This document shows, piece after piece, positions 1-61,982 of a stretch of DNA of 64,000 nt. This DNA comes from a virus, in IMG/VR virus record IMGVR_UViG_3300009408_000001, positions 64,001 through 128,000 of that record; one strand, given 5' to 3'. The notes below the pieces were generated by a model that saw only the letters and a program-made list of their open reading frames with translations, made no database searches and was not told the DNA's origin. The position numbers and the translations under genes are program-made. The number at the start of each line of letters is the position of its first letter. Positions within the stretch are counted from its first letter, which is position 1.

Positions 1-823
1 CATCCCATACTGGTACCAGAGTTAGTGTTGCGTTAACAATAATGTCGGGTACACGTTCTTGCCAGTACTCTGGACTTCTGCCAGTTGTGGAGAGTAGGAA
101 ATCCCGAATGGCTACCATCTGGTTTTCACGTACAGCCGCTTGTCTGCCGTATTCCAACAGTACCCAGGTTAGGACCAGACTTTCCCCTGTGACGGTATCA
201 TACCAGTTAAGCTTAATCGTTGACTGTGCAGTGGGTGGAGATGAACCCTTAGCCACCGAAATGCTTTCTAACATCGTGGTGATGTCTTGCTTAGCCAATG
301 CGGTTTTAAGGTACGTCGCCCCCTGTGCCAGATCCATCACATTCGGAACGGGGGGTATTACCCGTAATTCATGTTCATCGTATTCTGTTTGGAGTGCTTG
401 GTCTGACAACCACACCCGGATATCGACACTGATGCCTTCACTTTCCATCGTCCACGAAATCCAGGACGGTAAGGTTGTGTCAGCCGTGGTTACGGCAGGA
501 CCGGTGTTTGGGTTGTAAAGATCCGCATTGCGACTGCCGAGTTGCGCCGTAAAAGAAATGTCGGGCTGCGCAGTTGTAACAAAGTCGTTCAGGATTCGAA
601 GGGTAGCGGCTTCTATCGCTGCTGTAACAGGCTCATCGTATTTCTCGGTCTTTGATGAAAACACAACCAAAGATACTGCTGGATACCTGGGGTCAGCCAA
701 ATTCGTCTTTGTTGTACTGTAAGTACGACTGTGGATGGAAAGTTCTCCGAGGGGGGATGTGTTTCCTACCTCACCGTCCAGTAAATCGTTGATTATGCAA
801 AACGCCTTTAATGTATAACTCAC
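1..823 (-). CDS. phiKZ-like virion structural protein (3' end runs off the window)
   Basis: Not in the ORF track. GTG at 821-823 with AGGAG 7 nt upstream; open frame read manually to base 1 (MSYTLKAFCIINDLLDGEVGNTSPLGELS...). The N-terminus resembles conserved phiKZ-like virion proteins. Confidence 0.7.
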   Translation of the reverse strand, partial: MSYTLKAFCIINDLLDGEVGNTSPLGELSIHSRTYSTTKTNLADPRYPAVSLVVFSSKTEKYDEPVTAAIEAATLRILNDFVTTAQPDISFTAQLGSRNADLYNPNTGPAVTTADTTLPSWISWTMESEGISVDIRVWLSDQALQTEYDEHELRVIPPVPNVMDLAQGATYLKTALAKQDITTMLESISVAKGSSPPTAQSTIKLNWYDTVTGESLVLTWVLLEYGRQAAVRENQMVAIRDFLLSTTGRSPEYWQERVPDIIVNATLTLVPVWD

Positions 824-10736: not shown

Positions 10737-12785
10737 CTACCTGTGCACCGATTTGAACAGTCCAGCGATCGTTCTTCCTGGACCGATACCTGAGAACTGC
10801 GCCGCATGGTGAGTTGGTGACATCCATGCTTCAAAACTGGCCAACTGCTGTCGCCATGCTAACTTTAACTTGGCGGTTCCATAGTACTGGTCGTACAGTG
10901 ACAACCCACTCAGACACGCAAGGTATCGTGTGAAAGCGGTTTCTTCATCGAATGCACTCATGGATAAGAAATCCAATGGTCCCGAAAGGGGAGACAGCGG
11001 CATGTGTGCGAGCTTATCTAGGTTCAGTACTGAAATCGTGATATCGATTCGTGCAGGTATGTTATCTACGGTCCACCCAATTCCACCACCGCCTGAAGTC
11101 ACCGTTACGGAATCAATGATTCCCTTCTCAATGTTGTTCTTACCGTGGTGAAACATACGACATAACAAAGGACTCGTATAAGAATGTTTACCCGTGCTCA
11201 GTGGCATAACTCCCGCAAGAATTGCAGCAAGGGGCACCAGGCGAGTTAACATAACCGAGGTTTTATTCCCATATGGACCGCCTAGTGAGATGGTAAATGA
11301 AGAAGTGGGTAACTGGGTAGTAGACGCTTCCCAGAACTCTGGCATATCTACCATTGCGCTTCCGCCTAAGCCAGCTAAGTTTCCCATGCCAATCGAAGCA
11401 AGGCCACCTTCCATCAAGTTTTTTACAGCGGTGAATGCACTTTCCGCCATGCTAGCTATGGCACCATCCCCAACGTTACCATGTGCGAAGTCAAAGAACT
11501 TACTCCTTGCACCAGAACTGGTGGAGTTAAATGATCCTTCTAGGTCGGACTTTCTAGTGGAGTTAGTCACAGACATCTGTGTGGTGGGTATGTGATCTAC
11601 GTAGAACCCTACCCACATGGAACCATCTTCTAGTTCGGCGAGTAGACTACCGTCTCTGGCTTCCTGATGTACGTCTCCTACCTCTTTGGTAGCGTACGAG
11701 ATTGCGGCGTCCTTATCCCCTGCAATTACGTCTGCGTCCAATTCTGCTCTGGTTAATCCCACACCACGCCCAACACTGCTGTTCTTATAGTAGTTGTTCA
11801 TGTACTTTAAGTAGGTAGGTTGGTTTGCATCCCCCGCATTGGCTTGCATGTAGGTTGCGATACCCGGGGGGTCCATGCGTTCCCGAATGTACTTACGAAT
11901 CGCATCATCATAGGATAACTTATCGTTGTATACCGATGCGTCTGCAATTGACTTAAGTGTTCGGTGGTGGTGATTAGCCAGTCGTTGTGCTCTAGTGGAG
12001 ACCGCGAAGATATCAATCCCCCCATTCTTGTTACGAAAGATGTCTGGCATGAGTCGATTCATGACGGAGACGTCGTCCGTGGACATAGCGTCTCCATATG
12101 AAGCGGGTAAACCTGCAGCAGAAGCCGCTTCCTTAACGGTCTCGATCGACTTGTTTAAGAAGTTAAGCGGAACAGGGGGTTCTACGATTCCCAGGTTAAC
12201 CCCAAGCTTGTTTACAATTGTGGACACAGAGCTCCAGTACAGTGCCATGGTTTGTTTTATGTAGTAGAACGATGAGTTGGCACTGCCCAGTAACATTCCG
12301 ACTACGTTGGTAACCATGTTATTAAGGCCAGCAACCGCCTGCAATGGCAACGTAAGTAAGAACCCTATCGCATACCCTGCTTCAAAGAAGAACCCTCTAG
12401 AGTCACCTGTGTTAGCCAGGCGGGCCATCTGTGTATCATAGTACTTTGAAAAGAATCCAGTTAGACTGTTGTGTTTAGGCAGTCCAAACTGGAAGTACAC
12501 GATTTCAGCGTTGTCGTCAATCACACTGCTGTAATATTCCCCCTGTCCGTCAGACATACCAACCGGTCCGAATCCGGGCATACGTGGGTCAGCAAAGGGC
12601 GTAAACTGTGGTTTGGGGTTCAGCCCAAGGTTACCACCCAGTGATGAATCTGTGTATTTCAAATCTGCACTGGTGTAGTTCCGGTTGGCTTTAGCTCTAC
12701 CCCCCATGACTTTACCAGGGATGAGGTAAACTTGCTGTATCCAATCGTGGTCAGATCGTATCTTTAGAAAATCTGCTGCGGCCAT
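10737..12785 (-). CDS. Virion tail/baseplate protein (phiKZ gp182-like)
   Basis: 682 aa directly downstream of the gp181-like gene; YTDSSLGGNLGLNPKPQFTPFADP and G..YYS..IDDN motifs. Confidence 0.75.
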   Translation of the reverse strand: MAAADFLKIRSDHDWIQQVYLIPGKVMGGRAKANRNYTSADLKYTDSSLGGNLGLNPKPQFTPFADPRMPGFGPVGMSDGQGEYYSSVIDDNAEIVYFQFGLPKHNSLTGFFSKYYDTQMARLANTGDSRGFFFEAGYAIGFLLTLPLQAVAGLNNMVTNVVGMLLGSANSSFYYIKQTMALYWSSVSTIVNKLGVNLGIVEPPVPLNFLNKSIETVKEAASAAGLPASYGDAMSTDDVSVMNRLMPDIFRNKNGGIDIFAVSTRAQRLANHHHRTLKSIADASVYNDKLSYDDAIRKYIRERMDPPGIATYMQANAGDANQPTYLKYMNNYYKNSSVGRGVGLTRAELDADVIAGDKDAAISYATKEVGDVHQEARDGSLLAELEDGSMWVGFYVDHIPTTQMSVTNSTRKSDLEGSFNSTSSGARSKFFDFAHGNVGDGAIASMAESAFTAVKNLMEGGLASIGMGNLAGLGGSAMVDMPEFWEASTTQLPTSSFTISLGGPYGNKTSVMLTRLVPLAAILAGVMPLSTGKHSYTSPLLCRMFHHGKNNIEKGIIDSVTVTSGGGGIGWTVDNIPARIDITISVLNLDKLAHMPLSPLSGPLDFLSMSAFDEETAFTRYLACLSGLSLYDQYYGTAKLKLAWRQQLASFEAWMSPTHHAAQFSGIGPGRTIAGLFKSVHR

Positions 12786-30543: not shown

Positions 30544-30753
30544 ATGAAAACATACACGAACACAGTAAAGGCACATCGGACAACCATGTCCCGTGCCACG
30601 TTGGCAAACGTCTTAGCCCTGGGTCGACGGGTTGTAACCAACCTAACCGGCAACGAGTTGGCAAAGGGAGGGGTTTGTCCTGATGAATACCTCGCTTCTA
30701 AACTGAAAGGGTGGCTGAGCGAGGAATCTGCGAAAGTGAGAATGGAATTATGA
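30544..30753 (+). CDS. Small hypothetical protein
   Basis: Fills the gap between vRNAP beta and the next gene, with an ATGA overlap. Confidence 0.6.
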   Translation: MKTYTNTVKAHRTTMSRATLANVLALGRRVVTNLTGNELAKGGVCPDEYLASKLKGWLSEESAKVRMEL

Positions 30754-40673: not shown

Positions 40674-42281
40674 TCTATTGTAAAAAATGTACCTGCATGC
40701 CCGTATTCCCTACATATCGAAAGAACCGTTAGCAACGGTATTAAATGTGTACGGGTCATTCGCCGTGGAGAGGAGGATAGTGCTGACCTCCTGTACACTT
40801 TACACTCAACGCGTCGCGTTCCGCTGATTGATGATTCGCACCCAGAGTTAACCATTGCTATATTAGGGAATTCGATGTATGTGCTCGGGAAGACCTCTGG
40901 GGTGGTGACCAAAACAACCATTCCAGAAGGATACGTTGCAGCACAACAAACGACCGTGACTGGGTGGATTCCTGAACACATACACGGGCTATCAAACAAA
41001 TTCGCGTTCAAGTTAGAAGGAGGGCAGCGCGTGGTACGCACCATGGAGGCCTGTTTCCCAGGTACAGGTGTTAAGGAAGGGGAGTCAATTCTTGCTCCCT
41101 TCGAGGAGAGACCGGCCGTTCTTCCGACTCCTGACATAGGTCAAGTACGCCGAGTACCGGACGTTGCAGGTAACGTGCTGAAACTCAAAGACTGTGGAGA
41201 CACGGTGGGTGTTCCGTGTCAGGTAGGTGCCCATGACATGCCGACCCTAGTGGGTCGTTATCGTATACTTGAAGACGGTACCCCTGCTCTGATCAACATT
41301 GACGATGTACACCTCATCGGAAAAGAGATCCAGATTCGAAGCATTACGAAGTGTCGTTCTCCAAACCCAATGAACAGCTGTAAAGTGTGCAGTGGAAACC
41401 CACTACTAGTGGTACACACCATGGAGGCCTGTTTCCAAGGTACAGGTGTTAAGGAAGGGGAGTCAATTCTTGCTCCCTTCGAGGAGAGAGCGGCCATTAT
41501 TCCAACCCCTGATATAGAAAAAGTACGCCGTGTAGTGGATGAACAAAAGGGGTGCGTAGGGCGACGTACCCAGGCTGAAGAGGATAATCCGACCATTGAT
41601 TCTATAATCAACGCCGCGAGAGCTCGAGTCGCCGCTGGTGCCAAAAACCAACCACTGGAGAATAAAATGATTACACCCGATTACACAAATGAGGATGGCA
41701 AAGGCTGGACATTCATTCTAGATGGGGATGAACTCTATGTATCCCATGGGGATGACTTCAATCCCAGTGATACTGCTAGCTGTTACATGGTACAGCGGCT
41801 CACTAGTGTACATGCTAGTCCCAATTACCCGGGTGGTAACCGTTGCCAGTTAGGTAGGCACACGGTGTTCGTCAGCACCGAAGGTACACTCCGTCACATT
41901 GATGCAGAGACCGGGGTAGTATCCACTACCCTCTTACCCGGGATCTGTCTGGAAGACCTAGAACAAGAAAGAATTGAACTCCAACTCTCTCTGCCAGAAG
42001 GTGGCACACACCTAGTACCGGACGTTACCGATATCGTTCTGGGACTTATTGAATGTGGAGATACCCTAGGTGTCATCTGTATGAATTGCATACGCTTCAA
42101 CGAGGCCGTCGTATCATTCAGTTCAATCCGTCAGGGTAGTGCTGTCACATATGTGGAAACACACCCCGTGGATGAACAGTGCGAAAACCTCGGGGTTACT
42201 GTTACTTGTACGGATGGGAATCACATGACGTTCATGGTAGGGACCCATGCACATACCCTGCCACTGCATGATCTCAGTTAA
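40671..42281 (+). CDS. Mosaic accessory protein containing an RNAP beta'-like zinc-binding segment
   Basis: ATG at 40671 after the cassette RBS; internal 378-bp-period repeat; DCG...RSITKC-x8-CKVCSG. Confidence 0.75.
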   Translation: MSIVKNVPACPYSLHIERTVSNGIKCVRVIRRGEEDSADLLYTLHSTRRVPLIDDSHPELTIAILGNSMYVLGKTSGVVTKTTIPEGYVAAQQTTVTGWIPEHIHGLSNKFAFKLEGGQRVVRTMEACFPGTGVKEGESILAPFEERPAVLPTPDIGQVRRVPDVAGNVLKLKDCGDTVGVPCQVGAHDMPTLVGRYRILEDGTPALINIDDVHLIGKEIQIRSITKCRSPNPMNSCKVCSGNPLLVVHTMEACFQGTGVKEGESILAPFEERAAIIPTPDIEKVRRVVDEQKGCVGRRTQAEEDNPTIDSIINAARARVAAGAKNQPLENKMITPDYTNEDGKGWTFILDGDELYVSHGDDFNPSDTASCYMVQRLTSVHASPNYPGGNRCQLGRHTVFVSTEGTLRHIDAETGVVSTTLLPGICLEDLEQERIELQLSLPEGGTHLVPDVTDIVLGLIECGDTLGVICMNCIRFNEAVVSFSSIRQGSAVTYVETHPVDEQCENLGVTVTCTDGNHMTFMVGTHAHTLPLHDLS

Positions 42282-45531: not shown

Positions 45532-46473
45532 ATGAACGCATACGACACATTACCTGGTGAACCCTATACCGATGAAATCAAAGAGATCAAGGAAGTCATT
45601 GAAACCCAGGTTGCAATGGGTTCGGAAGGAAGATACCGTGAAACTACCGGCGGGTTGAACTACGCTGAAGTGGACAATGAAAAACTAGGTGGTTGGGTAC
45701 ACCCCTTTACCATGGGGGACAAGGTATACGGTGACCCTCGTCCATTCTTAAACTCTCGAGGCGGGGTTCGTTTAAGTACAGACCACGCCTTCTTAACTGT
45801 ACGGATGGCCATGGAACAAGAATGGTCACAGTCTGCTTCTACCTTTGAATCATTTATCACACCCTGTGCTGCGGTGTTCGGACAGTGGGTATCTGGCTCT
45901 GTCTTACAACGGTATGGCCTTACCGCTATTGACGAGGTCACTGTAAAGGTGTTGGCAAGTACATGGTACATTGCAGTTATCCTGGCGGGCATTGAAGTAC
46001 AGAACACTGAAGACAGGTTGAAAAATGACTTGGGTAACTACATCAGTGTGGATGATCTCATTACAATGTCACTTCGTTCACTTGGTTCGCGTGGCGTTGG
46101 AATCCCAGCAGAGTTTACAAATGAGTTACTAGAGAGTAACGACGGTATATTCTGCAAGGCCCTCGTTACGGGATTTCCCAGTATGCAACTCTTGACGGAT
46201 GCCATTACTGACTCTATCTCTACTAAACTGGGTGAGTTTAGTCCACTGGCACTTCGAAGAATTATGGCAGGTGGCAGCTGGTTGGGGTACATGGCGGATA
46301 CTTTCTCGTTGGTGGCAATGGAATACCCACCGATGTTGGTATCTATGTTGTACTTCATTGAGAAGAACCCCAGTTTCCGAAACAAGACCCGCATCGGTCG
46401 GTCCTCTAACATTGTAGGACGCAAGGGTGGTGTGGAAGCATTAGCTAAATCCGTTGGTAGAATCCTCCCATGA
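45532..46473 (+). CDS. Virion structural protein (phiKZ gp28-like position)
   Basis: GGAG RBS; divergent from the sheath; AMEYPPMLVSMLY motif. Confidence 0.75.
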   Translation: MNAYDTLPGEPYTDEIKEIKEVIETQVAMGSEGRYRETTGGLNYAEVDNEKLGGWVHPFTMGDKVYGDPRPFLNSRGGVRLSTDHAFLTVRMAMEQEWSQSASTFESFITPCAAVFGQWVSGSVLQRYGLTAIDEVTVKVLASTWYIAVILAGIEVQNTEDRLKNDLGNYISVDDLITMSLRSLGSRGVGIPAEFTNELLESNDGIFCKALVTGFPSMQLLTDAITDSISTKLGEFSPLALRRIMAGGSWLGYMADTFSLVAMEYPPMLVSMLYFIEKNPSFRNKTRIGRSSNIVGRKGGVEALAKSVGRILP

Positions 46474-48980
46474 TAGACTTACCCAGTTTAATTTATGACA
46501 CAGCTAAGTCGGAGCTGTGGACTAACCCACATAACGACCGACAACTAACCTACAAGCCAACCAGACTCTGTACGATACATGGGTCGGTTGGTTCTGTAAC
46601 CACTCACATGGCAACCCAACGACTTCCAGATGTAACCACCCGTTGGGTGTTATATGACTTTGGTAACCTGCCACTGGAAGGAACAGGAATACAGAGCCTT
46701 AATACCACGTGGTCTACTGGTGAATCAATAATGGTAGACAACGCCATGTTACTCAGTGTGTACTGCAATGGGGTTACGTTTGCGCCTGGTCAGTACCAGA
46801 TGCGACGTACCAGCAGAAAACACGTGTTACTGGCACTGGAGGCCGTACCCAACAGTAGCGCACTGTCGACTCTGGAACCGTTGTTCTTCCGAACGTATTC
46901 CAACGTATGGCACTCTACCTCGGCTAACCCGTATCCTGTACCCGTGTTACCCAGAAGTGTAACCTGCATGGCACCAGCAGATACGACTACGGTTTTATTA
47001 CACCAGGATGAACCGGTGGTGGGTAACCGCATGTTGTTCCACAATGGATATTACGTTTCTGATATTACCAGTAACGACATATCGAACGGGGATACCGTGT
47101 ACCAACTGGATGACTTACCGGGTAACGGATACGTCGACATTCCGGTGAATGACCTGAGTCATTATGTTTCGGACAACGATCGACGTGGCAAGTATGTCGT
47201 GATGCACCCTACCAATGGCACACCCCTGGCAATGGAACCAATGGATGAACTGGAGTTATTCGTTTGTTGTACCACGAAAAGTATAAATGGTGAGAGAGAC
47301 GTTGTTAAAGGTGTCTACTTCGGGAGAACTAAAGTAGGTGACATGCGTATGTTAACCCACCGAGATTACTCCATCGATGTTAGAAAAGTAACAGGATTAA
47401 CAGTGTCCCACCGCACTATCTTTGGAAACCGGGATGTTTTCTTTCGGGTATTTACTCGCAAACACGAAAACGGTAACCTGACAATTCTAGATGGGTCTTA
47501 CCTACTCGACCTCTTTAGACTAGAGGACAAAGATCGGGTTCGGATGATGACTGGAACCGGTGGGTTTAAAGGGTGGAGATGTACTGAACTGGAAAAGGCC
47601 AACTCCATACTGTGGCAGAGTCACGCATGGTGGGAATTAACCCAACCAGATAGTTTGAAGAATACTCTGGCATTGCCAGCGGTAGCCGAGCTTGTAGCTA
47701 CGGGTACCGTGAACGGTAACACACATACCCTTCCCTTCTCCATGCGACTTGGTGGTAAAGCAATTGGTTATGACGTAAACGGTGTTCTCATATCCATAGA
47801 AACCATTCCCGTTGATTCGGATGGTACTGTGATGGCGCTTCCAGTGGGAGTGGTCAATGTGGAGTACATCCCTGGAGAATTCATCACCGATGGTAGGATG
47901 ATTGATGAGCCCATGTACGGTGGTGAGAAAGCCAACTGGTTTAATGAGGTGTACTACTACAATGAAACGGAAGGGGGACAATGGCTACAGGGTCTAATAG
48001 ATAGGGACTACCACATTGATGCTGGTACCGGTGAGGTGTTGTGGGATGAGAGGCTTGCAACCGCAGGGTGGACAAGGCGCACGTGTAAGTACAGTTCTCA
48101 TCGTCGCATACGCACTGCTCCAAACACACTACATTACAAGTACTCCATGTGGGAAACCAACGAACCCGTCATTGCGGTAGGATTGTTTAAGACCGAGGTC
48201 TACATCAATGGCCACCAGCTAGTGGAAGGGATTGAATACACTGTAATTGGGCATTCTTTCCGGGTGAACAGTGCAGAGTACTACAATGGAGACGATCCTG
48301 AAGTTGTCATTGATGTATTCCATTATGGGGTAAGTGACCGTGGGGAAGAGAGAAAGATATCTGGGTTCATCCAACATCGGAAGGCGGTACCCATTACTGG
48401 GGAAGGACTGTTCATTAAAGGACGGAACCGGGTTTGCTTTAACTCTGGTTGTCTGGTAAGTGCGGATAAACTTGGCATACTCGAATCTCCAGGAACGGAG
48501 ACAGACCCAGCATACAGAGAAGGCTCATTGTGGGCAGCGGAAACAAGACCTATGTTACACAGTCGTTGGGGATTGCGTGCGTTTGGGGAGGAAGACGGGT
48601 ACTCTGAAATAATCAGTCGATCTGTGTTCAGACATATTCCAAAGCCGGATTTATCTGGACTGCTTACCATTCCCAAGCAACACCTCTTGTTCTCTCCGTT
48701 CATCAAGCGGGTAGTATGGTTGCTTATAAATAAGACACTGGATGTTTCCGTATTGGGAACCAGTCGATCATCAGTACAGTCCGCAATGGTACCCTATCTA
48801 GACCTACTAGCAGAAGACCCTACCTCACGATTAAGTTCGGATGGTCAACTTGGGATATCCCCCCTGCCGGAGTCTACCGTAACAACCATCTCAGGCAGTG
48901 AGATGGCCTTTCTTAGAGAAGTCGTTGCACTGTACTACAACGGTAACGTAACATTAAACCTCCACCTTCGGGTGGTGTAA
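46470..48980 (+). CDS. Virion/baseplate protein (phiKZ gp27-like position)
   Basis: 836 aa; RMLTHRDYSI, VYINGHQLVEGIEY and HLLFSPFI motifs. Confidence 0.75.
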   Translation: MIDLPSLIYDTAKSELWTNPHNDRQLTYKPTRLCTIHGSVGSVTTHMATQRLPDVTTRWVLYDFGNLPLEGTGIQSLNTTWSTGESIMVDNAMLLSVYCNGVTFAPGQYQMRRTSRKHVLLALEAVPNSSALSTLEPLFFRTYSNVWHSTSANPYPVPVLPRSVTCMAPADTTTVLLHQDEPVVGNRMLFHNGYYVSDITSNDISNGDTVYQLDDLPGNGYVDIPVNDLSHYVSDNDRRGKYVVMHPTNGTPLAMEPMDELELFVCCTTKSINGERDVVKGVYFGRTKVGDMRMLTHRDYSIDVRKVTGLTVSHRTIFGNRDVFFRVFTRKHENGNLTILDGSYLLDLFRLEDKDRVRMMTGTGGFKGWRCTELEKANSILWQSHAWWELTQPDSLKNTLALPAVAELVATGTVNGNTHTLPFSMRLGGKAIGYDVNGVLISIETIPVDSDGTVMALPVGVVNVEYIPGEFITDGRMIDEPMYGGEKANWFNEVYYYNETEGGQWLQGLIDRDYHIDAGTGEVLWDERLATAGWTRRTCKYSSHRRIRTAPNTLHYKYSMWETNEPVIAVGLFKTEVYINGHQLVEGIEYTVIGHSFRVNSAEYYNGDDPEVVIDVFHYGVSDRGEERKISGFIQHRKAVPITGEGLFIKGRNRVCFNSGCLVSADKLGILESPGTETDPAYREGSLWAAETRPMLHSRWGLRAFGEEDGYSEIISRSVFRHIPKPDLSGLLTIPKQHLLFSPFIKRVVWLLINKTLDVSVLGTSRSSVQSAMVPYLDLLAEDPTSRLSSDGQLGISPLPESTVTTISGSEMAFLREVVALYYNGNVTLNLHLRVV

Positions 48981-48990
48981 GGAGTAAATT

Positions 48991-50658
48991 ATGGGTGGAG
49001 TAGTAGTACGAGACGTCCGACTTAGGGGACGCGTTTTACATCTGGATGAAATCTGGATGGGTATAGAGGGCACGATTAACGATGGTCTGATCGTTGCTAA
49101 CATTGATGATGTGATCATGGGACCCGGTGGCATTTGGAGGGTCGCGTTGGTTGACGAGGTAACGTCCATTCCGGTGTTGGTGTCCATGATAGATGAATTG
49201 AGTGGCAAGAGCAGTACGCTCAGTTCGGATGTATTGGACGATGGGTTACGCCACTACCCTGCAGCCATCACCAGTCGTTTGTTTTTATCCACGGCGACCG
49301 AACCCTACACGATAACGTTGGATGCTACATTTCAGGTACGTGGGGCAGACGCGTCTCACCTCCGTCTCTTTTATGGCACGGATACCAGTTCAAAGGGAAA
49401 GGCAATAAGTCACAGTTTGGATACAAACGGCAAGATCCTGAGTGACCTTGTTGACTTACAGCCACTCGATCCGAATAACCTAGCCATCAAACGCCCTGGT
49501 GCAATGTACACGACCTTTAACATGCAAGACGGTGATACCTGTACCGCCGTATCTTACTCTGCGGATGGGAGAATCCATGATGAGCGGAGACTCGTGGTTA
49601 TCAACGCAGGTAGCATTGCTCCATTTGACACCAATGGGGTTTACCTAGAAGACATTAGTATTGAAAGTCCACTATTGTCTGCGACAGACCCACTGGTCAT
49701 CGAGAACCCGGTTAACCATACCTTTGACACGGCACTGATTACCGCGAAGTTACATTACAGTAACGGGGATGTGATACATCACCCTATAGACGGTAACAAA
49801 GCCATTCTGTTTGGCCTTTCTAACTTTGACAGTGGACGCGTAGGTAAGCCTGTGGAGTTAATGATAAGTTACTACCCGGGGCCAAGTGAACCAGCCATTA
49901 ACTTGAAAGGTGTGCTTCGTCCTAACTTATCGAAGACGTATACCCTGTCAAACGTAGCTACTGAAGGGGATTACTCCCTTAAGGTATACGCCATTCCATA
50001 TCGGGTTGCAGACAAGTGGGCAGTACGATGGATCCTAACAGATGCAGCCTATGGGGTAGCATTAGACGTCAGTGCTCATACCACGGTACTCAACGACACA
50101 AACCGGGCATTTAACTTCGATAACGATGGAGTATTGCAACGGATGTTAGTGACAGTTAACGTGGGTGAGGCAAACAGCATCAAATACCCAGGACACATTC
50201 ACACCCAGAAATTGGATATTTCGTTCCCCAGTTTCAGCACCATCGATCACAGTAGCTGGGTCATGGATTACGGAATTGACGGGAACACCGTGTTTGGTAA
50301 GGACCTGTACGCTACGGTAAATCAAACGGGTGAAAAGGGATACAAGGTCGATTGTAACCTACCTGATATGAACACCTGGTTGGACACCTTGTACCGTGGT
50401 GTTGATCCAGTGTACGATCCTGCATCCTATGGGACAGCACCGGTACCGACACACGTGCGTGTGGAACACGGGGGTCCAGATGGAAGAAAGGTCATCGGGG
50501 AGTTCCCTGTAGATGAGTGGGACCTTGTGCATTACATGGGGTCCTCTGGTACATGGGAAGACACAATGTCGATGAGTCTGGTATGGCTTGTTAAGACAGT
50601 GGATACTACCCTGACCCTGGCCATGTCTCCTCTTCAAATAAAATACCTTCTGGTATAA
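48991..50658 (+). CDS. Virion/baseplate protein (phiKZ gp26-like position)
   Basis: 555 aa upstream of terminase; VLHLDEIW and ITAKLHYSNG motifs. Confidence 0.75.
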   Translation: MGGVVVRDVRLRGRVLHLDEIWMGIEGTINDGLIVANIDDVIMGPGGIWRVALVDEVTSIPVLVSMIDELSGKSSTLSSDVLDDGLRHYPAAITSRLFLSTATEPYTITLDATFQVRGADASHLRLFYGTDTSSKGKAISHSLDTNGKILSDLVDLQPLDPNNLAIKRPGAMYTTFNMQDGDTCTAVSYSADGRIHDERRLVVINAGSIAPFDTNGVYLEDISIESPLLSATDPLVIENPVNHTFDTALITAKLHYSNGDVIHHPIDGNKAILFGLSNFDSGRVGKPVELMISYYPGPSEPAINLKGVLRPNLSKTYTLSNVATEGDYSLKVYAIPYRVADKWAVRWILTDAAYGVALDVSAHTTVLNDTNRAFNFDNDGVLQRMLVTVNVGEANSIKYPGHIHTQKLDISFPSFSTIDHSSWVMDYGIDGNTVFGKDLYATVNQTGEKGYKVDCNLPDMNTWLDTLYRGVDPVYDPASYGTAPVPTHVRVEHGGPDGRKVIGEFPVDEWDLVHYMGSSGTWEDTMSMSLVWLVKTVDTTLTLAMSPLQIKYLLV

Positions 50659-55785: not shown

Positions 55786-55860
55786 TGCTTCTTCTTTAAC
55801 TGCAACGTACATGTACATATGTGGGTTCCCTATGGTAAGTATAGGATCCGACGTATTTCA

Positions 55861-55920
55861 AAACAATATTACCTTACTGATAACACGTCCGTGTTATTTA
55901 TTCTAATTGGAGCTTTACTT
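55861..55920 (+). promoter_or_regulatory. Regulatory cassette copy B (no terminator)
   Basis: AAACAATATTACCTTACTG-ATAACACGTCCGTGTTAT-TTATTCTAATTGGAG. Confidence 0.85.
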
Positions 55921-56742
55921 ATGAACAAACCTGTCTTTTTCAATCGTAATGTTCCCCTTGATGAATTCAAGGATCTCTTCGAAACAAAACTGGTGCCGGT
56001 TGAACTGGGTCGACATTACCTGCGTCCACCACAGGCAACCATGACCTCCTCGTGGGTAGCCGGTACTGACGTAATTCGCCATGTCACTGTACCCGGGTAT
56101 GACCACGATTGGGCGATGGTGTACGGTAGCATTGTAACCGAGACAGTACACATTGTTCCCCTGATCCCTCACATGGACGGTGTTACCCAGAGTATCCTGT
56201 TACTATTGGTAGACCACCGAAATTGCACACTGGACCTTGTAGAGGTAGTTTACACCGAGGAGCCGATTCACACCCTAACCGGGGAGGACATCATAGCACG
56301 TGTATCTGCGTACCTTCAAGCCGAACGTGAGAATGTGCTTTTATTGGAACGCGTTGAAGCAGACGATGGGTTTACGAACTGGCCCGACCCCGATGTGTTC
56401 CAAATCGAAGGCGGTACCCTGAGCGGACTTGCACACGCCATTGAAAGGGGGGGTAACCCCATGCTAGCGAAACATGTCCGGGAAACCCTGGTCGGGATGC
56501 AGGGTGATGGGAATACCGACCCTACAACTATGACATGGGATGCCACGGAGTATTTACGGATGTGGGGTAGTCCTGCGTCCACGGTGGAAACGGGAGAACC
56601 CGAGGGTGAATCCCAGAGACATAGTTTGGACGATGAAGTGGAACCTAATAGCGTAACCTGGGCACTGGACGATGCCACTGTGTCGGCCATTGCAGCATTG
56701 CTGATTGAAGCCCACCTACCGGAGGACCAGGGCGATGACTGA
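55921..56742 (+). CDS. Hypothetical early protein
   Basis: ATG at 55921 after the cassette RBS. Confidence 0.75.
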   Translation: MNKPVFFNRNVPLDEFKDLFETKLVPVELGRHYLRPPQATMTSSWVAGTDVIRHVTVPGYDHDWAMVYGSIVTETVHIVPLIPHMDGVTQSILLLLVDHRNCTLDLVEVVYTEEPIHTLTGEDIIARVSAYLQAERENVLLLERVEADDGFTNWPDPDVFQIEGGTLSGLAHAIERGGNPMLAKHVRETLVGMQGDGNTDPTTMTWDATEYLRMWGSPASTVETGEPEGESQRHSLDDEVEPNSVTWALDDATVSAIAALLIEAHLPEDQGDD

Positions 56743-57010
56743 GAAGTCGGGTAATAATGCGAGTCGTACCGAAAAGGGATTCGACATCGTAGTTGATGCA
56801 TTGTCTGACGTACCAGAGGTGTATGTACGCCATATGAACGAACATCTTTTAACAGATAAAGGAAAGAGTAATATGAAAAACAACGCCTACGGGAGTGGGG
56901 TTCTCCCCCGGACATGGGGGTCTAATAGATCCGTGGCAACCAGACCGAACAACCATAAGCAAGGGGGACCCGTACAGTCTCGTGGAAAGGGCAAAAGTAA
57001 GCGGTACTAA
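56735..57010 (+). CDS. Small basic-tailed protein
   Basis: GGAGGA RBS; ends in SRGKGKSKRY*. Confidence 0.65.
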   Translation: MTEKSGNNASRTEKGFDIVVDALSDVPEVYVRHMNEHLLTDKGKSNMKNNAYGSGVLPRTWGSNRSVATRPNNHKQGGPVQSRGKGKSKRY

Positions 57011-57052
57011 CCCAAGGGGATTGACCTGTGTAAAAGCGATAAGTGTGAAACA

Positions 57053-57360
57053 GGTGGAGATGAACCCTTTAGAGACCCGTTCGATGAACGCATCAAACAC
57101 TATACCAGTGTATACGACATCGGGTCCTCACACCCCCTATACTTGAACAGCCCTTCTGAGTACACGGTTACACGTAAGACTTACCTTACTACCTTACCAG
57201 GTCCTCGTATGTCTAAAGGTAAAGGTAAGGTTAAACGGTACTGATATACCTTCACTTCTTTCACTTCTATTATTAATAAAGGAGGTACCTATAGTGTAGA
57301 CGTCATACGCACCTATCCTGTAAAAGGGATAGGGGTGGAGATGAACCCTTTAGAGACCCG
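57053..57360 (+). repeat. 27-bp direct repeat GGTGGAGATGAACCCTTTAGAGACCCG
   Basis: Copies at 57053-57079 and 57334-57360, each preceded by a TGTAAAAG(C/G)GATA block. Confidence 0.95.
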
Positions 57361-57391
57361 AAGGGTCTAATAGATAAGTGAACGAAGTGAA
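57251..57391. ncRNA. Candidate structured non-coding element
   Basis: 57251-57272 pairs with 57368-57391 (21 bp, one mismatch, one 2-nt bulge); internal hairpins at 57312-57333 and 57355-57367; no ORF. Confidence 0.4.
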
Positions 57392-57674
57392 CTCCTTACT
57401 ACCTAACCATAACAGTTACTAGAGTAGTTAAGGTAATGACAATAGAGGACTAAAGGGTAGTACTGACTATACCCTATACATGAAGGTAACTATACACTAC
57501 CTTTAATGTAATGGTTACTACTTGACATACGGGATTAGACCTGATTAAGGATAAGGGATAGATAGACTTAACATAGATACATGATAGTAATACATGTAAG
57601 CTATGAGGTAATGAGATACACTGAAGTGATAAGGGTAAGTAATGATGCTTACTCTAAACTAGGGGAATGCGAAA

Positions 57675-58154
57675 ATGAGTAATACAGTGGTTAAAGGGGT
57701 TGTACCACTTCTTAGCTTACATGACCCCATTCGTCCACCTGTAGAGGACTGTGACCTATACACCGGACCTAACGGAGACCAGATCATCGTAATGCCCGAT
57801 GGCAACCACCTGCTTATTCGGCATAGCGAACACTATACGCTGCCTTACGTCATTGACTTACCCCTTACCTTGGATATCCACGCTAGGTCGGATAAGTGGA
57901 GACGGGGGTGGGAAGACACTCACTTACAAGTTAGAGAACAGGTGTTGACTATAACGACATGGGGTTCCCATAGTAGTCGTCGAGTTTTAGTTAGGAACCG
58001 CCCCATCTTGGGAATGGTTCCTCTTTCTGGGAAACGCTTACCTAAACAACAAGTCTGTATGTTAAAGGATCGTTCCCTTATCCTTGTTAACCCAGAGACA
58101 GCGGAAATAACTGAGCTGTATACACAGAAACCTACCGGGCGTAAAGAGCAATGA
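57675..58154 (+). CDS. Hypothetical protein
   Basis: AGGGG RBS; coupled to the next ORF. Confidence 0.7.
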   Translation: MSNTVVKGVVPLLSLHDPIRPPVEDCDLYTGPNGDQIIVMPDGNHLLIRHSEHYTLPYVIDLPLTLDIHARSDKWRRGWEDTHLQVREQVLTITTWGSHSSRRVLVRNRPILGMVPLSGKRLPKQQVCMLKDRSLILVNPETAEITELYTQKPTGRKEQ

Positions 58155-58348
58155 ATGCTGAAGGGGTACACATGTACCCCCTTGTGGGAGAACGCAGCTG
58201 TGAGGGCATTCTAGAGGGTACAGTACGTATAGAAAGGGACCTGCCACAGTACAACCAATACGATTTACTGGATAATGGTTCGAACGTAGGTGTCAACGTA
58301 TCCCGATATACGAACCAAAGTCAGTTACATATCCCAGTAACAGCATAA
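58151..58348 (+). CDS. Small hypothetical protein
   Basis: ATGA overlap; ends at a terminator. Confidence 0.6.
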   Translation: MNAEGVHMYPLVGERSCEGILEGTVRIERDLPQYNQYDLLDNGSNVGVNVSRYTNQSQLHIPVTA

Positions 58349-58352
58349 GCAG

Positions 58353-58440
58353 GAGGCCCCGTTAAGGGCCTTTTCTTTTTTCTTTGCCCTCACGCATATT
58401 TCAAAACCATATTACCTTACTGATAACACATCCGTGTTAT
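58353..58440 (+). promoter_or_regulatory. Regulatory cassette copy C (terminator with inverted loop, promoter, palindrome)
   Basis: GAGGCCCCGTTAAGGGCC-T tract; AAACCATATTACC; ATAACACATCCGTGTTAT at 58423-58440. Confidence 0.85.
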
Positions 58441-58549
58441 TGATTCTAATTGGATATCGAACACGTGTTCGATGATAGAGTGCACGGACTACTGAAGGAA
58501 GACCAGTCCATGGTATCTATTTACATCCAAGCCACCTGAGGATAAGTAA

Positions 58550-58726
58550 TTGTTCCTGTACATCCCTAAAAAGAAACCAGTTCCTAAACGTGGAGATATC
58601 ATCTCCACCCGGGGTAATGTAACCTACGTTCGTTTTAAGGTAGAACCCCGCCGGTTCATTAAGGGGTCTAGTGAAAAATGCGTCAGGGTTAACCCTGACA
58701 AGGACGATACCGATAAACCAACATAA
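58550..58726 (+). CDS. Possible small basic protein (TTG start)
   Basis: GAGGA upstream; 58-aa ORF ending just before a terminator. Confidence 0.35.
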   Translation: MFLYIPKKKPVPKRGDIISTRGNVTYVRFKVEPRRFIKGSSEKCVRVNPDKDDTDKPT

Positions 58727-58730
58727 ATAG

Positions 58731-58820
58731 GAGGCCCTTCACGGGGCCTCTTTTTTATTTGCGTTCCAGCCATTATTAAGAACCACATTGTTATTTAATT
58801 CATTTGGAGATTTAAAGATG
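58731..58820 (+). repeat. Regulatory cassette copy D with 22-bp internal deletion
   Basis: Matches copy A on both sides but lacks ACCTTACTGATAACACGTCCGT. Confidence 0.85.
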
Positions 58821-59480
58821 AATAACCGCTTAGAAACAAAAGTCTGTGTAGGCCCCTATCTAATATCCGTATCAAAGGGGACAGTATGCATAACTGCTAT
58901 GGATTCTGTACCCTCCGAAATGGGGAAACCCAAGTTTAAAGACGCAGTTGGAATTATCCCGGGTGCCGGAAGTCGTGTTTACATTGTGTGTTCCTCCGGA
59001 CGCAAGGAACTGGCCATTCGGGAATACAATGTGTATGGGAATGAGTCCGTCGATGTAGAACTAGCCATGGCGACTTGCACTCGTCTAGGTATGGAAGAAG
59101 CCGGACCTTACTCGTGTACCCGGGTACACGATGGGATTTTGTACCACAGTAGGGACATGTCCGAATCCCAGACAATGGTACCGGTACCCATTGGGGTCGG
59201 TTTAAAGGTGCGTGGTTTGATTGGTAACCTCTCCACCCCTACGGTGGTCATATTGGAAGATGGTACCGTTCTGTCGCTGACTGCCAATGGAAAACTAACG
59301 TTCTTATTTACAACGGTTAATCCGTACGAAGATGAACTTGCAGTACACCATTACAGTAAGCCCACGAACGATGGAGATCCTGGACAAATAGTACAGTGGT
59401 GGAAATCTTACCATGAACTAACGACACTGGCTTCAAAGTACTACGACAACATAGTCCCTTCCAAGAAAAACATAACCTAG
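58818..59480 (+). CDS. Hypothetical beta-rich protein
   Basis: ATG after the cassette RBS. Confidence 0.75.
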   Translation: MNNRLETKVCVGPYLISVSKGTVCITAMDSVPSEMGKPKFKDAVGIIPGAGSRVYIVCSSGRKELAIREYNVYGNESVDVELAMATCTRLGMEEAGPYSCTRVHDGILYHSRDMSESQTMVPVPIGVGLKVRGLIGNLSTPTVVILEDGTVLSLTANGKLTFLFTTVNPYEDELAVHHYSKPTNDGDPGQIVQWWKSYHELTTLASKYYDNIVPSKKNIT

Positions 59481-59489
59481 GAGAACAAC

Positions 59490-60470
59490 ATGACAAAATG
59501 TGAAGTATATGCAAATCACAAATTCGAAGGATACCTTCGGTTCAGTCAAGATTACATTGTCCTTCTTACCCCCTGTATGGATGATACCATCCGCTGGCAT
59601 AATGTCGTGCCCCCAGAAGGAGTAGATGTAGAGGTACACATTAAGGTAACCCAGGAAATGTTCGCGGCAGAAGGTGTCAAAGCCCTTGATAGACTGTTTA
59701 AACGAGTAACCCCTGAAGAACGGGAAGCCGTGCTTAACGCACACGGTTACGTAGACCTATATGGCGCATCGTACATGGTACACAACGGAACCCTATATTA
59801 CTTCATGGGCGATAACGTGTACACTGTCTTTGAGTTTTATCCCGTTACGGGGATTGTCCGTGATGGTTTGAGTGTGGTTACCACACAATCTTTCAAAGGC
59901 AAACCAATCGGACAGTACCGGGTAAGTCCAGAAAAGCCAGTACCCTTGTTGTTGGACCAAGACAACGAGCTGAACATTCCTAACTTACTCCCTTCCACTA
60001 CCTCCCTCTTGGATTTACAGCAGTTGGTCCGAGTCCCAGTGAGGCGACATTCCGGTGTGGCCAACTGGAACGTGGACATCACAAGAGCAGATACTACAGC
60101 GCACGTGATGCGTATTCACCATGACGATACTGATCTCGAATTTGAAATCGTTAATGGTTCGGTAACGGTGACTTCAGGCGGAGGCATTAGTGAAATAAAG
60201 ATTCAAGATGACCGGGTTGCATATTCCCTATGTCCAGTTGGTAACGACCGGTTATTAATCACATGTACGGATAATACAGTTTGGGAAACCTCTGTCGAGG
60301 GTGAAGTGATGTTAGCAACCCACCCATATGTTCCAGGCTACACGGTAACTGCGGTGTGTACCTTGGACCCTACGGAAGAAGACCCAGCGTGTTTCCGGGT
60401 TGACGCCATTCGTGTGGTAGACGGTGTGTTGGTACGGGGGTTCAACCTGGGTTATCTATTCTTTAGTTAA
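59490..60470 (+). CDS. Hypothetical beta-rich protein
   Basis: AGGAG RBS; 326 aa. Confidence 0.8.
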   Translation: MTKCEVYANHKFEGYLRFSQDYIVLLTPCMDDTIRWHNVVPPEGVDVEVHIKVTQEMFAAEGVKALDRLFKRVTPEEREAVLNAHGYVDLYGASYMVHNGTLYYFMGDNVYTVFEFYPVTGIVRDGLSVVTTQSFKGKPIGQYRVSPEKPVPLLLDQDNELNIPNLLPSTTSLLDLQQLVRVPVRRHSGVANWNVDITRADTTAHVMRIHHDDTDLEFEIVNGSVTVTSGGGISEIKIQDDRVAYSLCPVGNDRLLITCTDNTVWETSVEGEVMLATHPYVPGYTVTAVCTLDPTEEDPACFRVDAIRVVDGVLVRGFNLGYLFFS

Positions 60471-60489
60471 CCGACGACGACATAAATAA

Positions 60490-60601
60490 GAGGCCCTTAA
60501 CGGGGCCTCTTTCTTTTTTACCGTTTCAGACATTATTAAGAACCACATTACCTTACTGATAACACCTCCGTGTTATTTAATCCATTAGGAGATTTACCAT
60601 G
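60490..60601 (+). repeat. Regulatory cassette copy E
   Basis: Near-identical to copy A over about 110 bp; palindrome ATAACACCTCCGTGTTAT at 60559-60576. Confidence 0.9.
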
Positions 60602-61246
60602 GCTACATTGCTAAAAGTATTCCACATTATCGACCCGTCTGACTCATCGCCAGTTGTCCAACAATTATCTTTCGCGGTGGCAGATACTGACTACACGGTA
60701 GGCGCAGAAGTAATAGGCCACTTGGTGTTAACTTCTTCCATTGCCCAAGTTCGTCCATGGGAAGCACTGGAATGCAGGGTGGTACTTACCACCCCAGATC
60801 TAGTCAAGCTCACACTAACCCGAAAGGAGAACCCGGAAGACGTACATGCTCTCCTCTTTTCGATCGTGCTGGACGCCCTAGAATCAGAACCATCACATAG
60901 TCCTGATCTACGTCGGTACGCAGAGAACCCACAGATGCCTCATCCGGTGTTCCCGTCAATTCCGCCTAGTCCGCACGGTAACCAACCACAACCATTCCAG
61001 AGTTACTGCCATCCCCAACCCCATGTTCATCCTTCTGACTCAGTCTATTCAGCAAAGGGTGCTTTAGATTCCGCAATGGGTGATTTAGATTCCGCAATGG
61101 GTGATTTAGATTCCTCAATGGTTGCTTTAGATAAGTTTATAAATGGACCGAAACAGGGTCCTGCCCCTTCAGGTAAAACCCCCGCCAAACCTACAGAGGA
61201 AGTGAGAGAAACTGACCCGGCTTCTAAGAAACCCACCACGCATTAA
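60599..61246 (+). CDS. Hypothetical protein with Pro/Gln/His-rich linker and heptad repeat
   Basis: AGGAG RBS in the cassette. Confidence 0.8.
   Translation: MATLLKVFHIIDPSDSSPVVQQLSFAVADTDYTVGAEVIGHLVLTSSIAQVRPWEALECRVVLTTPDLVKLTLTRKENPEDVHALLFSIVLDALESEPSHSPDLRRYAENPQMPHPVFPSIPPSPHGNQPQPFQSYCHPQPHVHPSDSVYSAKGALDSAMGDLDSAMGDLDSSMVALDKFINGPKQGPAPSGKTPAKPTEEVRETDPASKKPTTH
61064..61132 (+). repeat. 21-bp tandem repeat, about 3.3 copies (LDSAMGD)
   Basis: TTAGATTCCGCAATGGGTGAT twice, then a degenerate third copy. Confidence 0.9.
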
Positions 61247-61289
61247 TAAACAACACGGGTGCTAACCCACCCGTGTACTTGGAGAACAC

Positions 61290-61775
61290 GTGAATACCTT
61301 ACAAATGCTGCAAGTCGACACCATTCTTTTTTCTACTCTTCTCGCCAACGCCCTACCTGTTGGGCACAAAGATAGGCAAGAAGCATTCTTAACCGCCCGT
61401 GCAGTAGAGAGGTCTCTAAAGGGTTCATCTCCACCGGAGTTGATTGATGTACGTGTCCAAAACATCTCCACCCGCAGTAAACTGGACTCCACATTGGATA
61501 ACCTAGACACATTGCAATCGACCTTACCTAGGGTAGATAGGTTACGCGAATTAGTAACTCGGTTAAAGGGAGCTACTGTTACCCTGTCCCTAAAGGAAGA
61601 AACCGTAGTAAAACATGCGGTTGCCCTCATTGGGTCACATTCCATGGTACCTCGTACTTTGTTACAGCGAGGTTTGGTTAAGACCGAGGAAGCGTGGCGT
61701 CGGGTTTCCGAGAAGCAACGAGAGAAAGATACAGAAGTAACCCACCGTAACCACCTACCTACCTGGGCAAAGTAA
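61290..61775 (+). CDS. Hypothetical helical protein
   Basis: GGAGAACAC-GTG RBS. Confidence 0.7.
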   Translation: MNTLQMLQVDTILFSTLLANALPVGHKDRQEAFLTARAVERSLKGSSPPELIDVRVQNISTRSKLDSTLDNLDTLQSTLPRVDRLRELVTRLKGATVTLSLKEETVVKHAVALIGSHSMVPRTLLQRGLVKTEEAWRRVSEKQREKDTEVTHRNHLPTWAK

Positions 61776-61951
61776 CCCATTGTATGTATAAGCTATTCTC
61801 CTGAGTAGTCCATTTGTGGTGGATGGAAACAGGCCTCAGGCGAGCACATGTATATGTGACATTCACACCCTTCCGTGTATCGGAAACGTTGTGCGACATG
61901 TACCGCTGTGTCCATATGTCTGAGAACCTGTTGGTAAATGGTGGTACTTGA

Positions 61952-61982
61952 GAGGCCCTTCACGGGGCCTCTTTCTTTTTTT
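61952..61982 (+). terminator. Terminator (GAGGCCC family)
   Basis: GAGGCCCTTCACGGGGCCTC plus T tract. Confidence 0.9.

Follow-up and report, generated by a model that had tools for sequence, protein, structure and literature searches.

Why does one 25-nt sequence occur twice between the called genes of a virus and once more, inverted and without a single difference, inside a gene some 4 kb away? The question is raised by the stretch analysed here, 64,000 nucleotides (G000:64001-128000) of the 197,530-bp virus record IMGVR_UViG_3300009408_000001; it is referred to as the window, positions are counted within it, and positions of the whole record carry the prefix G000. The 25-mer, GGTGGAGATGAACCCTTTAGAGACC, has three exact occurrences, at 57053-57077 and 57334-57358 on the plus strand and at 61411-61435 on the minus strand, the last one in the plus-strand gene 61290..61775. 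A sequence-only reading had noticed this match and suggested that a plus-strand RNA from a non-coding locus could act in trans as an antisense to this and other phage mRNAs. The answer favoured here, with a probability of roughly 0.45, is that the 25-mer family is the product of short-patch copying at the level of DNA, antisense pairing being a possible by-product.

Perfect short copies within one family and across the genome

The perfect 25-nt complementarity of the locus copies to gene 61290..61775 was confirmed at all three positions, and no match to the 25-mer was obtained in 100 shuffled sequences. Markov models of orders 0-6, trained with the family masked, put the expected number of copies at 3e-10 to 6e-9. 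The identity between the two plus-strand copies (copies 1 and 2) spans 27 nt, and each of them lies 4.05 or 4.33 kb from the inverted copy, with which they form the longest exact inverted repeat across the 197,530-bp record. No fourth full 25-mer was found genome-wide, and shorter perfect pieces turned up outside the window (Table 1).

The 15-mer GGTGGAGATGAACCC is present six times in the record, in the three full copies and at G000:7852, G000:41936 and window 233-250, against 7e-3 copies expected from an order-6 Markov model. These six perfect copies are accompanied by none with one mismatch and then by chance-level matches only (2-3 mismatches). The presence of perfect copies without single-mismatch variants fits copying and not gradual tuning. 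The members measure 27, 27, 25, 18, 17 and 15 nt, with one additional 14-nt 3' piece, and every one of them sits in coding or recently coding sequence. When the non-cassette repeats of at least 14 nt were clustered, this family, with 7-8 members, was the largest short-repeat family of the genome. Two other groups exceeded three members (4-5 each) and consisted of paralogs or of ribosome-binding-site/start sequences, and all the remaining ones were pairs or triples. The match noticed earlier at 234-250, antisense to a minus-strand virion structural gene, proved to be real (17 nt, or 18 nt with copy 2). The one claimed for 15 of 18 nt at 12387-12404 does exist but carries no weight, because chance alone is estimated to give about one match of this kind. 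Pieces of 10-12 nt at 61463 and 58598 were rejected as family members since their 10-mer is common in both polarities.

The family is not the only set of short copies in this DNA. Perfect islands of 16-41 nt shared between unrelated genes are in 2-5-fold excess genome-wide, in every orientation and frame; inverted 16-mers numbered 29 against about 5 in Markov-5 simulations and inverted 20-mers 3 against 0. In a control jumbo phage, BONAISHI (100 kb), the real counts equalled those of its own simulation, with no excess. The between-gene islands comprised 25 in sense and in the same frame, 14 in sense in another frame and 20 antisense, all three classes being above the expectation estimated from simulations. 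As the islands are spread over all polarities, no RNA polarity rule fits them, and the existence of similar perfect islands that obey no such rule makes a DNA-level origin of the 25-mer available without the need of an RNA function.

The non-cassette islands have sharp edges and unrelated flanks; among them are 20-mers, one 21-mer and a single-mismatch 41-mer. Three consecutive orphan genes, 59490..60470, 60599..61246 and 61290..61775, each carry one of the four longest inverted islands; those at 60945-60964 and 60162-60181 thus fall in the genes adjoining the one that holds the inverted 25-mer. The partners of the three islands lie in genes 10737..12785 and 48991..50658, whose size and position suggest core virion genes, and in the locus of the unannotated open reading frame (ORF) that harbours copy 1, ORF2.

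We infer both the mechanism of the copying and its direction. The 25-mer would form the centre of a scattered family of short, perfect DNA copies that arose during recombination-dependent replication, by template switching or the conversion of short tracts, and the same process would have sprinkled the genome with perfect islands of 16-41 nt, above all in fast-evolving orphan genes. The antisense relation of two early plus-strand transcripts would then be a by-product, with a 25-bp RNA duplex predicted if both are made together. Should this DNA-level reading be true, the family clearly marks a process that copies short patches, by which orphan accessory genes are built and reshuffled from pieces of the phage's core genes; this bears on the origin of new phage genes.

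Coding context of the locus and of the target gene

The locus cannot plainly be called non-coding. Copy 1 is part of an ORF whose coding signal is full, and copy 2 falls in the decayed duplicate of that ORF, in frame with it. A plain non-coding annotation of 57.0-57.7 kb is unwarranted whether the copies arose by DNA copying or serve as RNA. Genes B and C are separated by 664 nt without called genes, at the beginning of which ORF2 was recognized. Its codon score (0.209) is close to that of gene B (0.214), the remaining five frames score poorly, and its basic tail SKGKGKVKRY resembles the gene B tail SRGKGKSKRY, which is met nowhere else in the genome. No ATG, GTG or TTG start codon was found for ORF2; it could originate from read-through, from a recent nonsense mutation or from a CTG start at 57026 following AAGGGG.

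Codon by codon, the surroundings of copy 1 align with those of copy 2 (LCKSDK(CET)GGDEPFRDP with SCKRDR---GGDEPFRDP), with an in-frame indel of 9 nt. Upstream of copy 2 there is a strong ribosome-binding site, AAAGGAGGT (from 57279), followed after six bases by a GTG-TAG start-stop at 57294-57299, and the homologous peptide frame of copy 2 is one base out of register. Judged from the sequence, the copy 2 region appears to be the tandem duplicate of a mini-gene, with a frameshift.

No terminator was detected between the cassette at about 55860-55920 and the terminator at 58351-58374; both strands of 57000-57700 were without one, and the 25-mer locus has no cassette promoter. Given the cassette at the head of the unit and the lack of an internal terminator, both 25-mers are expected on one early transcript of the plus strand. 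In run X2, which represents a second, low-depth strain, a contig matches from 57674 on and is preceded by 90 unlike bases, among them an AGGAGG ribosome-binding site, so that the right-hand part of the stretch without called genes seems to have been exchanged in some strains. Segments 57211-57477 and 61281-61465 are retained in a low-depth second strain, each with a single difference, and the one in the latter segment, at 61388, lies outside the island.

The target gene 61290..61775 has a codon score of +0.178, compared with about -0.03 for the overlapping minus ORF, a GGAG ribosome-binding site 5' of its GTG start and an identical gene call by the Joint Genome Institute (JGI), all of which mark the plus strand as its coding strand. 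The minus ORF 61262..61780, in which the 25-mer is read in frame as GGDEPFRD, was rejected on codon scores as a real gene or alternative C-terminus. The minus frame across the target is a non-coding shadow, with a score of -0.15, and antisense frames open for at least 150 codons accompany 27 of 140 genes. A 9-bp GC-rich hairpin at 61253-61276, between 60599..61246 and 61290..61775, has no T-run on the plus strand and may hence be a processing or attenuation signal.

All four reversed copies outside the locus place GGGTTCATCTCCACC on the mRNA strand; three are read in one and the same frame as GSSPP and the fourth as VHLH near a stop codon. The gene at 233-250 codes for a virion structural protein (phrog_3293).

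Table 1 Coordinates of the 25-mer copies, their surroundings and other perfect islands
Feature	Position	Strand	Description
Copy 1 of the 25-mer	57053..57079	+	27 nt same as copy 2; GGDEPFRDP within ORF2
Copy 2 of the 25-mer	57334..57360	+	between hairpins 57312-57333 and 57354-57368; in decayed mini-ORF
Inverted copy	61411..61435	-	in + gene 61290..61775; RSLKGSSPP, codons 41-49
5' piece	G000:7852	-	15 nt, exact
5' piece	G000:41936	-	16-17 nt, exact
5' piece	233..250	+	perfect 17-18 nt; antisense to minus-strand virion structural gene; read KGSSPP
3' piece AACCCTTTAGAGAC	G000:40746	+	14 nt, single extra occurrence
Promoter/leader cassette, repeated	55860..55920	+	heads the unit A, B, ORF2, structured element, C, D
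Genes of the unit	A 55921..56742, B 56735..57010, C 57675..58154, then D	+	
ORF2	57011..57244	+	unannotated, 77 codons; directly after the TAA of B, in the frame of B, no stops
Structured element	57251..57391	+	predicted 20-bp terminal stem (57251-57272 with 57368-57391) around AAAGGAGGT, GTG-TAG and copy 2
Intrinsic terminator	58351..58374	+	closes unit A-D
Terminator and promoter cassette	60488..60596	+	heads the unit 60599..61246 and 61290..61775
Gene with inverted copy	61290..61775	+	161 aa; second gene of cassette-bounded + unit
Terminator	61950-61981		of the unit 60599..61246/61290..61775
Inverted island, perfect, 20 nt	60945-60964 with 50271-50290		third member, 16-17 nt, at G000:186091
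Inverted island, perfect, 20 nt	60162-60181 with 11089-11108		
Inverted island, perfect, 20 nt	20002-20021 with G000:171835-171854		
Island of 41 nt, one mismatch	G000:33378-33418 and G000:94632-94672 (window 30632-30672)		unrelated flanks

DNA copying weighed against antisense RNA, a recombination site and chance

Several observations weigh against short-patch copying as the sole explanation. No enzyme or mechanism for it was identified. All 5' pieces share their start base, and this is the first base after a hairpin. The 25-mer family, with its 7-8 members, stands out among islands that are mostly pairs or triples, so random patching alone leaves the spread of the 25-mer unexplained. The 27-mer shows 0 differences, compared with 2 in 15 adjacent homologous bases (p ~0.02, an estimate). 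In the virion protein, KGSSPP aligns with residues of six homologs without a gap and is therefore not an insertion, so that this gene either supplied the 5' part or received it by in-register conversion. The size of the family, the common start at the base of a hairpin and the perfect conservation are better explained by a functional antisense RNA than by DNA copying.

Such an RNA is the main rival of DNA copying and is considered somewhat less probable. An early plus-strand transcript carrying the two 25-mers would pair over 25 nt with the mRNA of 61290..61775, leading to cleavage of the duplex or co-degradation; a piece of about 100-140 nt would perhaps be released from 57251-57391 by an RNase III-type cut, and its first 15-18 nt would also pair with a further three mRNAs of the phage, including that of a virion protein. 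The matches would have been supplied by patch copying and kept by selection. Part of the earlier proposal of a trans antisense thus stands, as transcription from the plus strand is plausible, the duplex is strong and the seed of copy 2 lies between hairpins, with a mean unpaired probability of about 0.4. The predicted 25-bp duplex with the target mRNA (25/25 complementary) has an energy of -48.7 kcal/mol, against predicted costs of about 12 and 9 kcal/mol to open the locus copy and the target, respectively (about 21 in total), which leaves the net duplex favourable. The region 57245-57400 folds on the plus strand with -51.4 kcal/mol (z = -4.6 versus shuffles) and on the minus strand with z = -3.4. 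When folded alone on the plus strand, both units give a hairpin, about 16 single-stranded nt (25-mer positions 5/7-20) and a second hairpin; the copy 2 unit reaches z = -3.0 (plus) and -1.9 (minus), and the copy 1 unit is not significant. The terminal stem of 20 bp resembles an RNase III substrate, the common left boundary of the pieces coincides with a hairpin base, both copies lie in a cassette-bounded plus unit without an internal terminator, no short-repeat family of the genome is larger, and in all four reversed copies of at least 15 nt outside the locus the mRNA strand carries the complement. Precedents are offered by DicF, which comes from an operon, and by OOP RNA, through which the cII mRNA is cleaved by RNase III (PMC12197685). 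On the other side, the locus is coding or formerly coding, one of the targets is at chance level and the islands follow no polarity rule. Copy 1 stands in translated-looking sequence, copy 2 is a decayed mini-ORF with a strong ribosome-binding site of its own, and the target site is in the middle of the gene, away from the ribosome-binding site. Perfect matches of 15-25 nt are atypical for trans-acting small RNAs (sRNAs). The predicted folds do contain the accessible complementary seed of a trans-encoded sRNA, but no separate gene equipped with a promoter and an intrinsic terminator of its own was found. Neither did Rfam give a match at the gathering score in the window, or any at E <= 1 in 56700-57800; no tRNA or tmRNA was found, and none of the RNA runs searched lists the sequence. 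The earlier argument from a common polarity of the targets relative to their mRNAs is weakened because the locus copies are themselves coding or formerly coding, so that independent coding members split 1 versus 4, and because the opposite orientation gives a stop in one frame, while GSSPP, which we assume to be a tolerated Gly/Ser/Pro-rich stretch, looks harmless. The bias amounts to just 4/4 and is explained in part by this tolerance of the encoded peptide, and the 14-nt 3' piece has the wrong polarity. Less probable is a wider role, in which the single-stranded 5' stretch of an element-derived small RNA, beginning directly behind a hairpin, serves as a hub that either regulates several phage mRNAs, that of a virion protein among them, through the unusually long perfect matches of 15-25 nt or templates DNA patches. 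Patches written from RNA into DNA would account for the start base that all copies share and for their differing ends. In either form the hub, if true, would represent a self-directed nucleic-acid circuit of a new kind, operating in a nucleus-forming jumbo phage.

A site on DNA, recognized by a protein for recombination, inversion or cleavage by a nuclease, is improbable. Full and half sites would then be remnants of past exchanges, and the segment 57078-61410 could be flipped. The sharp boundaries would suit this, as would the full sites, inverted at distances of 4.05 and 4.33 kb, and the 5' piece at G000:41936 (minus) and the 3' piece at G000:40746 (plus), inverted 1.2 kb apart, whose co-location has a p of about 0.02-0.04 (estimate) and whose shared overlap, AACCCT, is the pattern that an exchange inside a core would leave. 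However, no match to Resolvase (PF00239), Phage_integrase (PF00589) or RVT_1 was found in the 197.5-kb record, which is 71% complete. The 25-mer has nearly no dyad symmetry, and its location inside ORFs and lack of degenerate variants are unusual for protein-binding sites. The contigs of the likely source run are colinear with breaks only at cassette repeats, and show no strand-changing joint at the 25-mers, although contigs drop rare forms. Inversion would also give no sensible genes, the minus frame being one of the shadow frames common in this genome. To chance or composition, that is, an origin from frequent codons (GTG GAG ATG), next to no credence is given. GTGGAGAT and GGTGGAGATG are indeed strongly over-represented in both polarities, sense copies often being read as VEM, and the 8-mer was observed 35 times against about 6 expected. 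Yet the 15-mer was observed 6 times where the order-6 Markov model predicts 7e-3 copies, and the 25-mer 3 times where it predicts 6e-9; chance is thereby refuted for members of at least 15 nt and holds only for pieces of up to 12 nt and for the 15/18 match. A small share of the probability, somewhat above that of the DNA site, is left to explanations outside those named here. A CRISPR array or mini-array was rejected, the two copies being 281 nt apart with no further repeats, and so was a diversity-generating retroelement, as RVT_1 gave no match and the copies, of just 25 nt, do not differ.

The phage and comparable systems

The phage is an uncultured, nucleus-forming jumbo phage that encodes chimallin and RNA polymerases of its own, as judged by Pfam matches, and its record comes from the assembly of a hydrothermal-vent metagenome. 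No close relatives were found with five protein queries, the nearest terminase being 37-44% identical. The exact 25-mer is absent from viral, metagenome and genome contig collections, where the 15-mer gave single chance matches only, in unrelated viral contigs, and nothing was found in run X3. Pfam and PHROGs had no matches to the local genes except DUF7484 and the virion protein, ESM Atlas had nothing for genes A and C, and megablast and tblastn against GenBank phages gave no matches. Homolog searches with the protein of 61290..61775, its DUF7484 neighbour, ORF2 and the ORF at G000:7601 returned only themselves or noise.

To our knowledge, hardly any regulators that act as RNA are known from lytic jumbo phages. 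Only one sRNA was predicted in phiKZ, and a northern blot did not confirm it (PMC8244752). Should the pairing considered above be functional, a virulent phage would here be adjusting its own genes by means of a long perfect antisense segment in an early mRNA, which would be a rarity.

DicF of the Qin prophage is an sRNA that is cut from a polycistronic operon and acts in trans (PMC12197685). The candidate RNA would likewise be part of a multi-gene transcript, with a long, possibly processable flanking stem and with targets elsewhere; its position in an operon is suggested by the cassettes and the 20-bp terminal stem is predicted. DicF, in contrast, is a proven RNA and pairs imperfectly at the ribosome-binding site of ftsZ, whereas the candidate would pair perfectly, over 25 nt and in mid-gene. 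Lambda OOP and other cis-antisense RNAs (PMC12197685) share with the candidate a long perfect complementarity that would make it a substrate of RNase III. RNAs of the OOP type, however, come from the strand opposite their target, and here the partners are 4 kb apart on one strand. A cis-antisense RNA was accordingly rejected, with partners 4.05 and 4.33 kb apart that are both apparently transcribed from the plus strand. In the immunity RNAs c4 of P1 and CI of P4, a short segment cut from a longer phage transcript matches repeated targets on the same strand. The candidate would resemble them as a short segment of a longer phage transcript with targets on the same strand of the same genome, but c4 and CI belong to immunity systems of temperate elements and act near the RNA gene.

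With the G segment of Mu and the C segment of P1 (Gin/Cin) and with shufflons, the locus has in common short inverted repeats that lie in coding sequence and flank a segment of about 4 kb; it differs from them in having no recombinase match in the 71%-complete record, no dyad-symmetric site, no coding alternative frames and no second orientation in assemblies. Mobile regulatory cassettes of the PeSL type and modular shuffling in T4-type phages were reportedly described by Arbiol et al. in 2010. As in PeSL, accessory genes of the present genome stand between repeated terminator-promoter-leader cassettes, and it is these genes that are richest in copied patches. Unlike PeSL, the 25-mer family is found inside ORFs and not at cassette junctions, and its members are 15-27 nt long, in both orientations and without flanking homology.

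Some minor observations concern the surroundings of the copies. The 3' and 5' parts at G000:40746-40759 (plus) and G000:41936-41951 (minus), inverted to each other, flank the orphan ORF 40823..41968. A palindrome, GTGGAGAT-ATC-ATCTCCAC, is found at 58588-58612 in the 58-aa ORF 58550..58726, and GTGGAGAT is about six-fold over-represented genome-wide in both polarities. GGGTCTAATAGAT occurs three times on the plus strand, at 56918-56930 in gene B, at 57363-57375 just 3' of copy 2 and at 47990-48002, which falls in the 836-aa gene 46470..48980. The densest spot of the genome for island ends is 57.0-57.4 kb.

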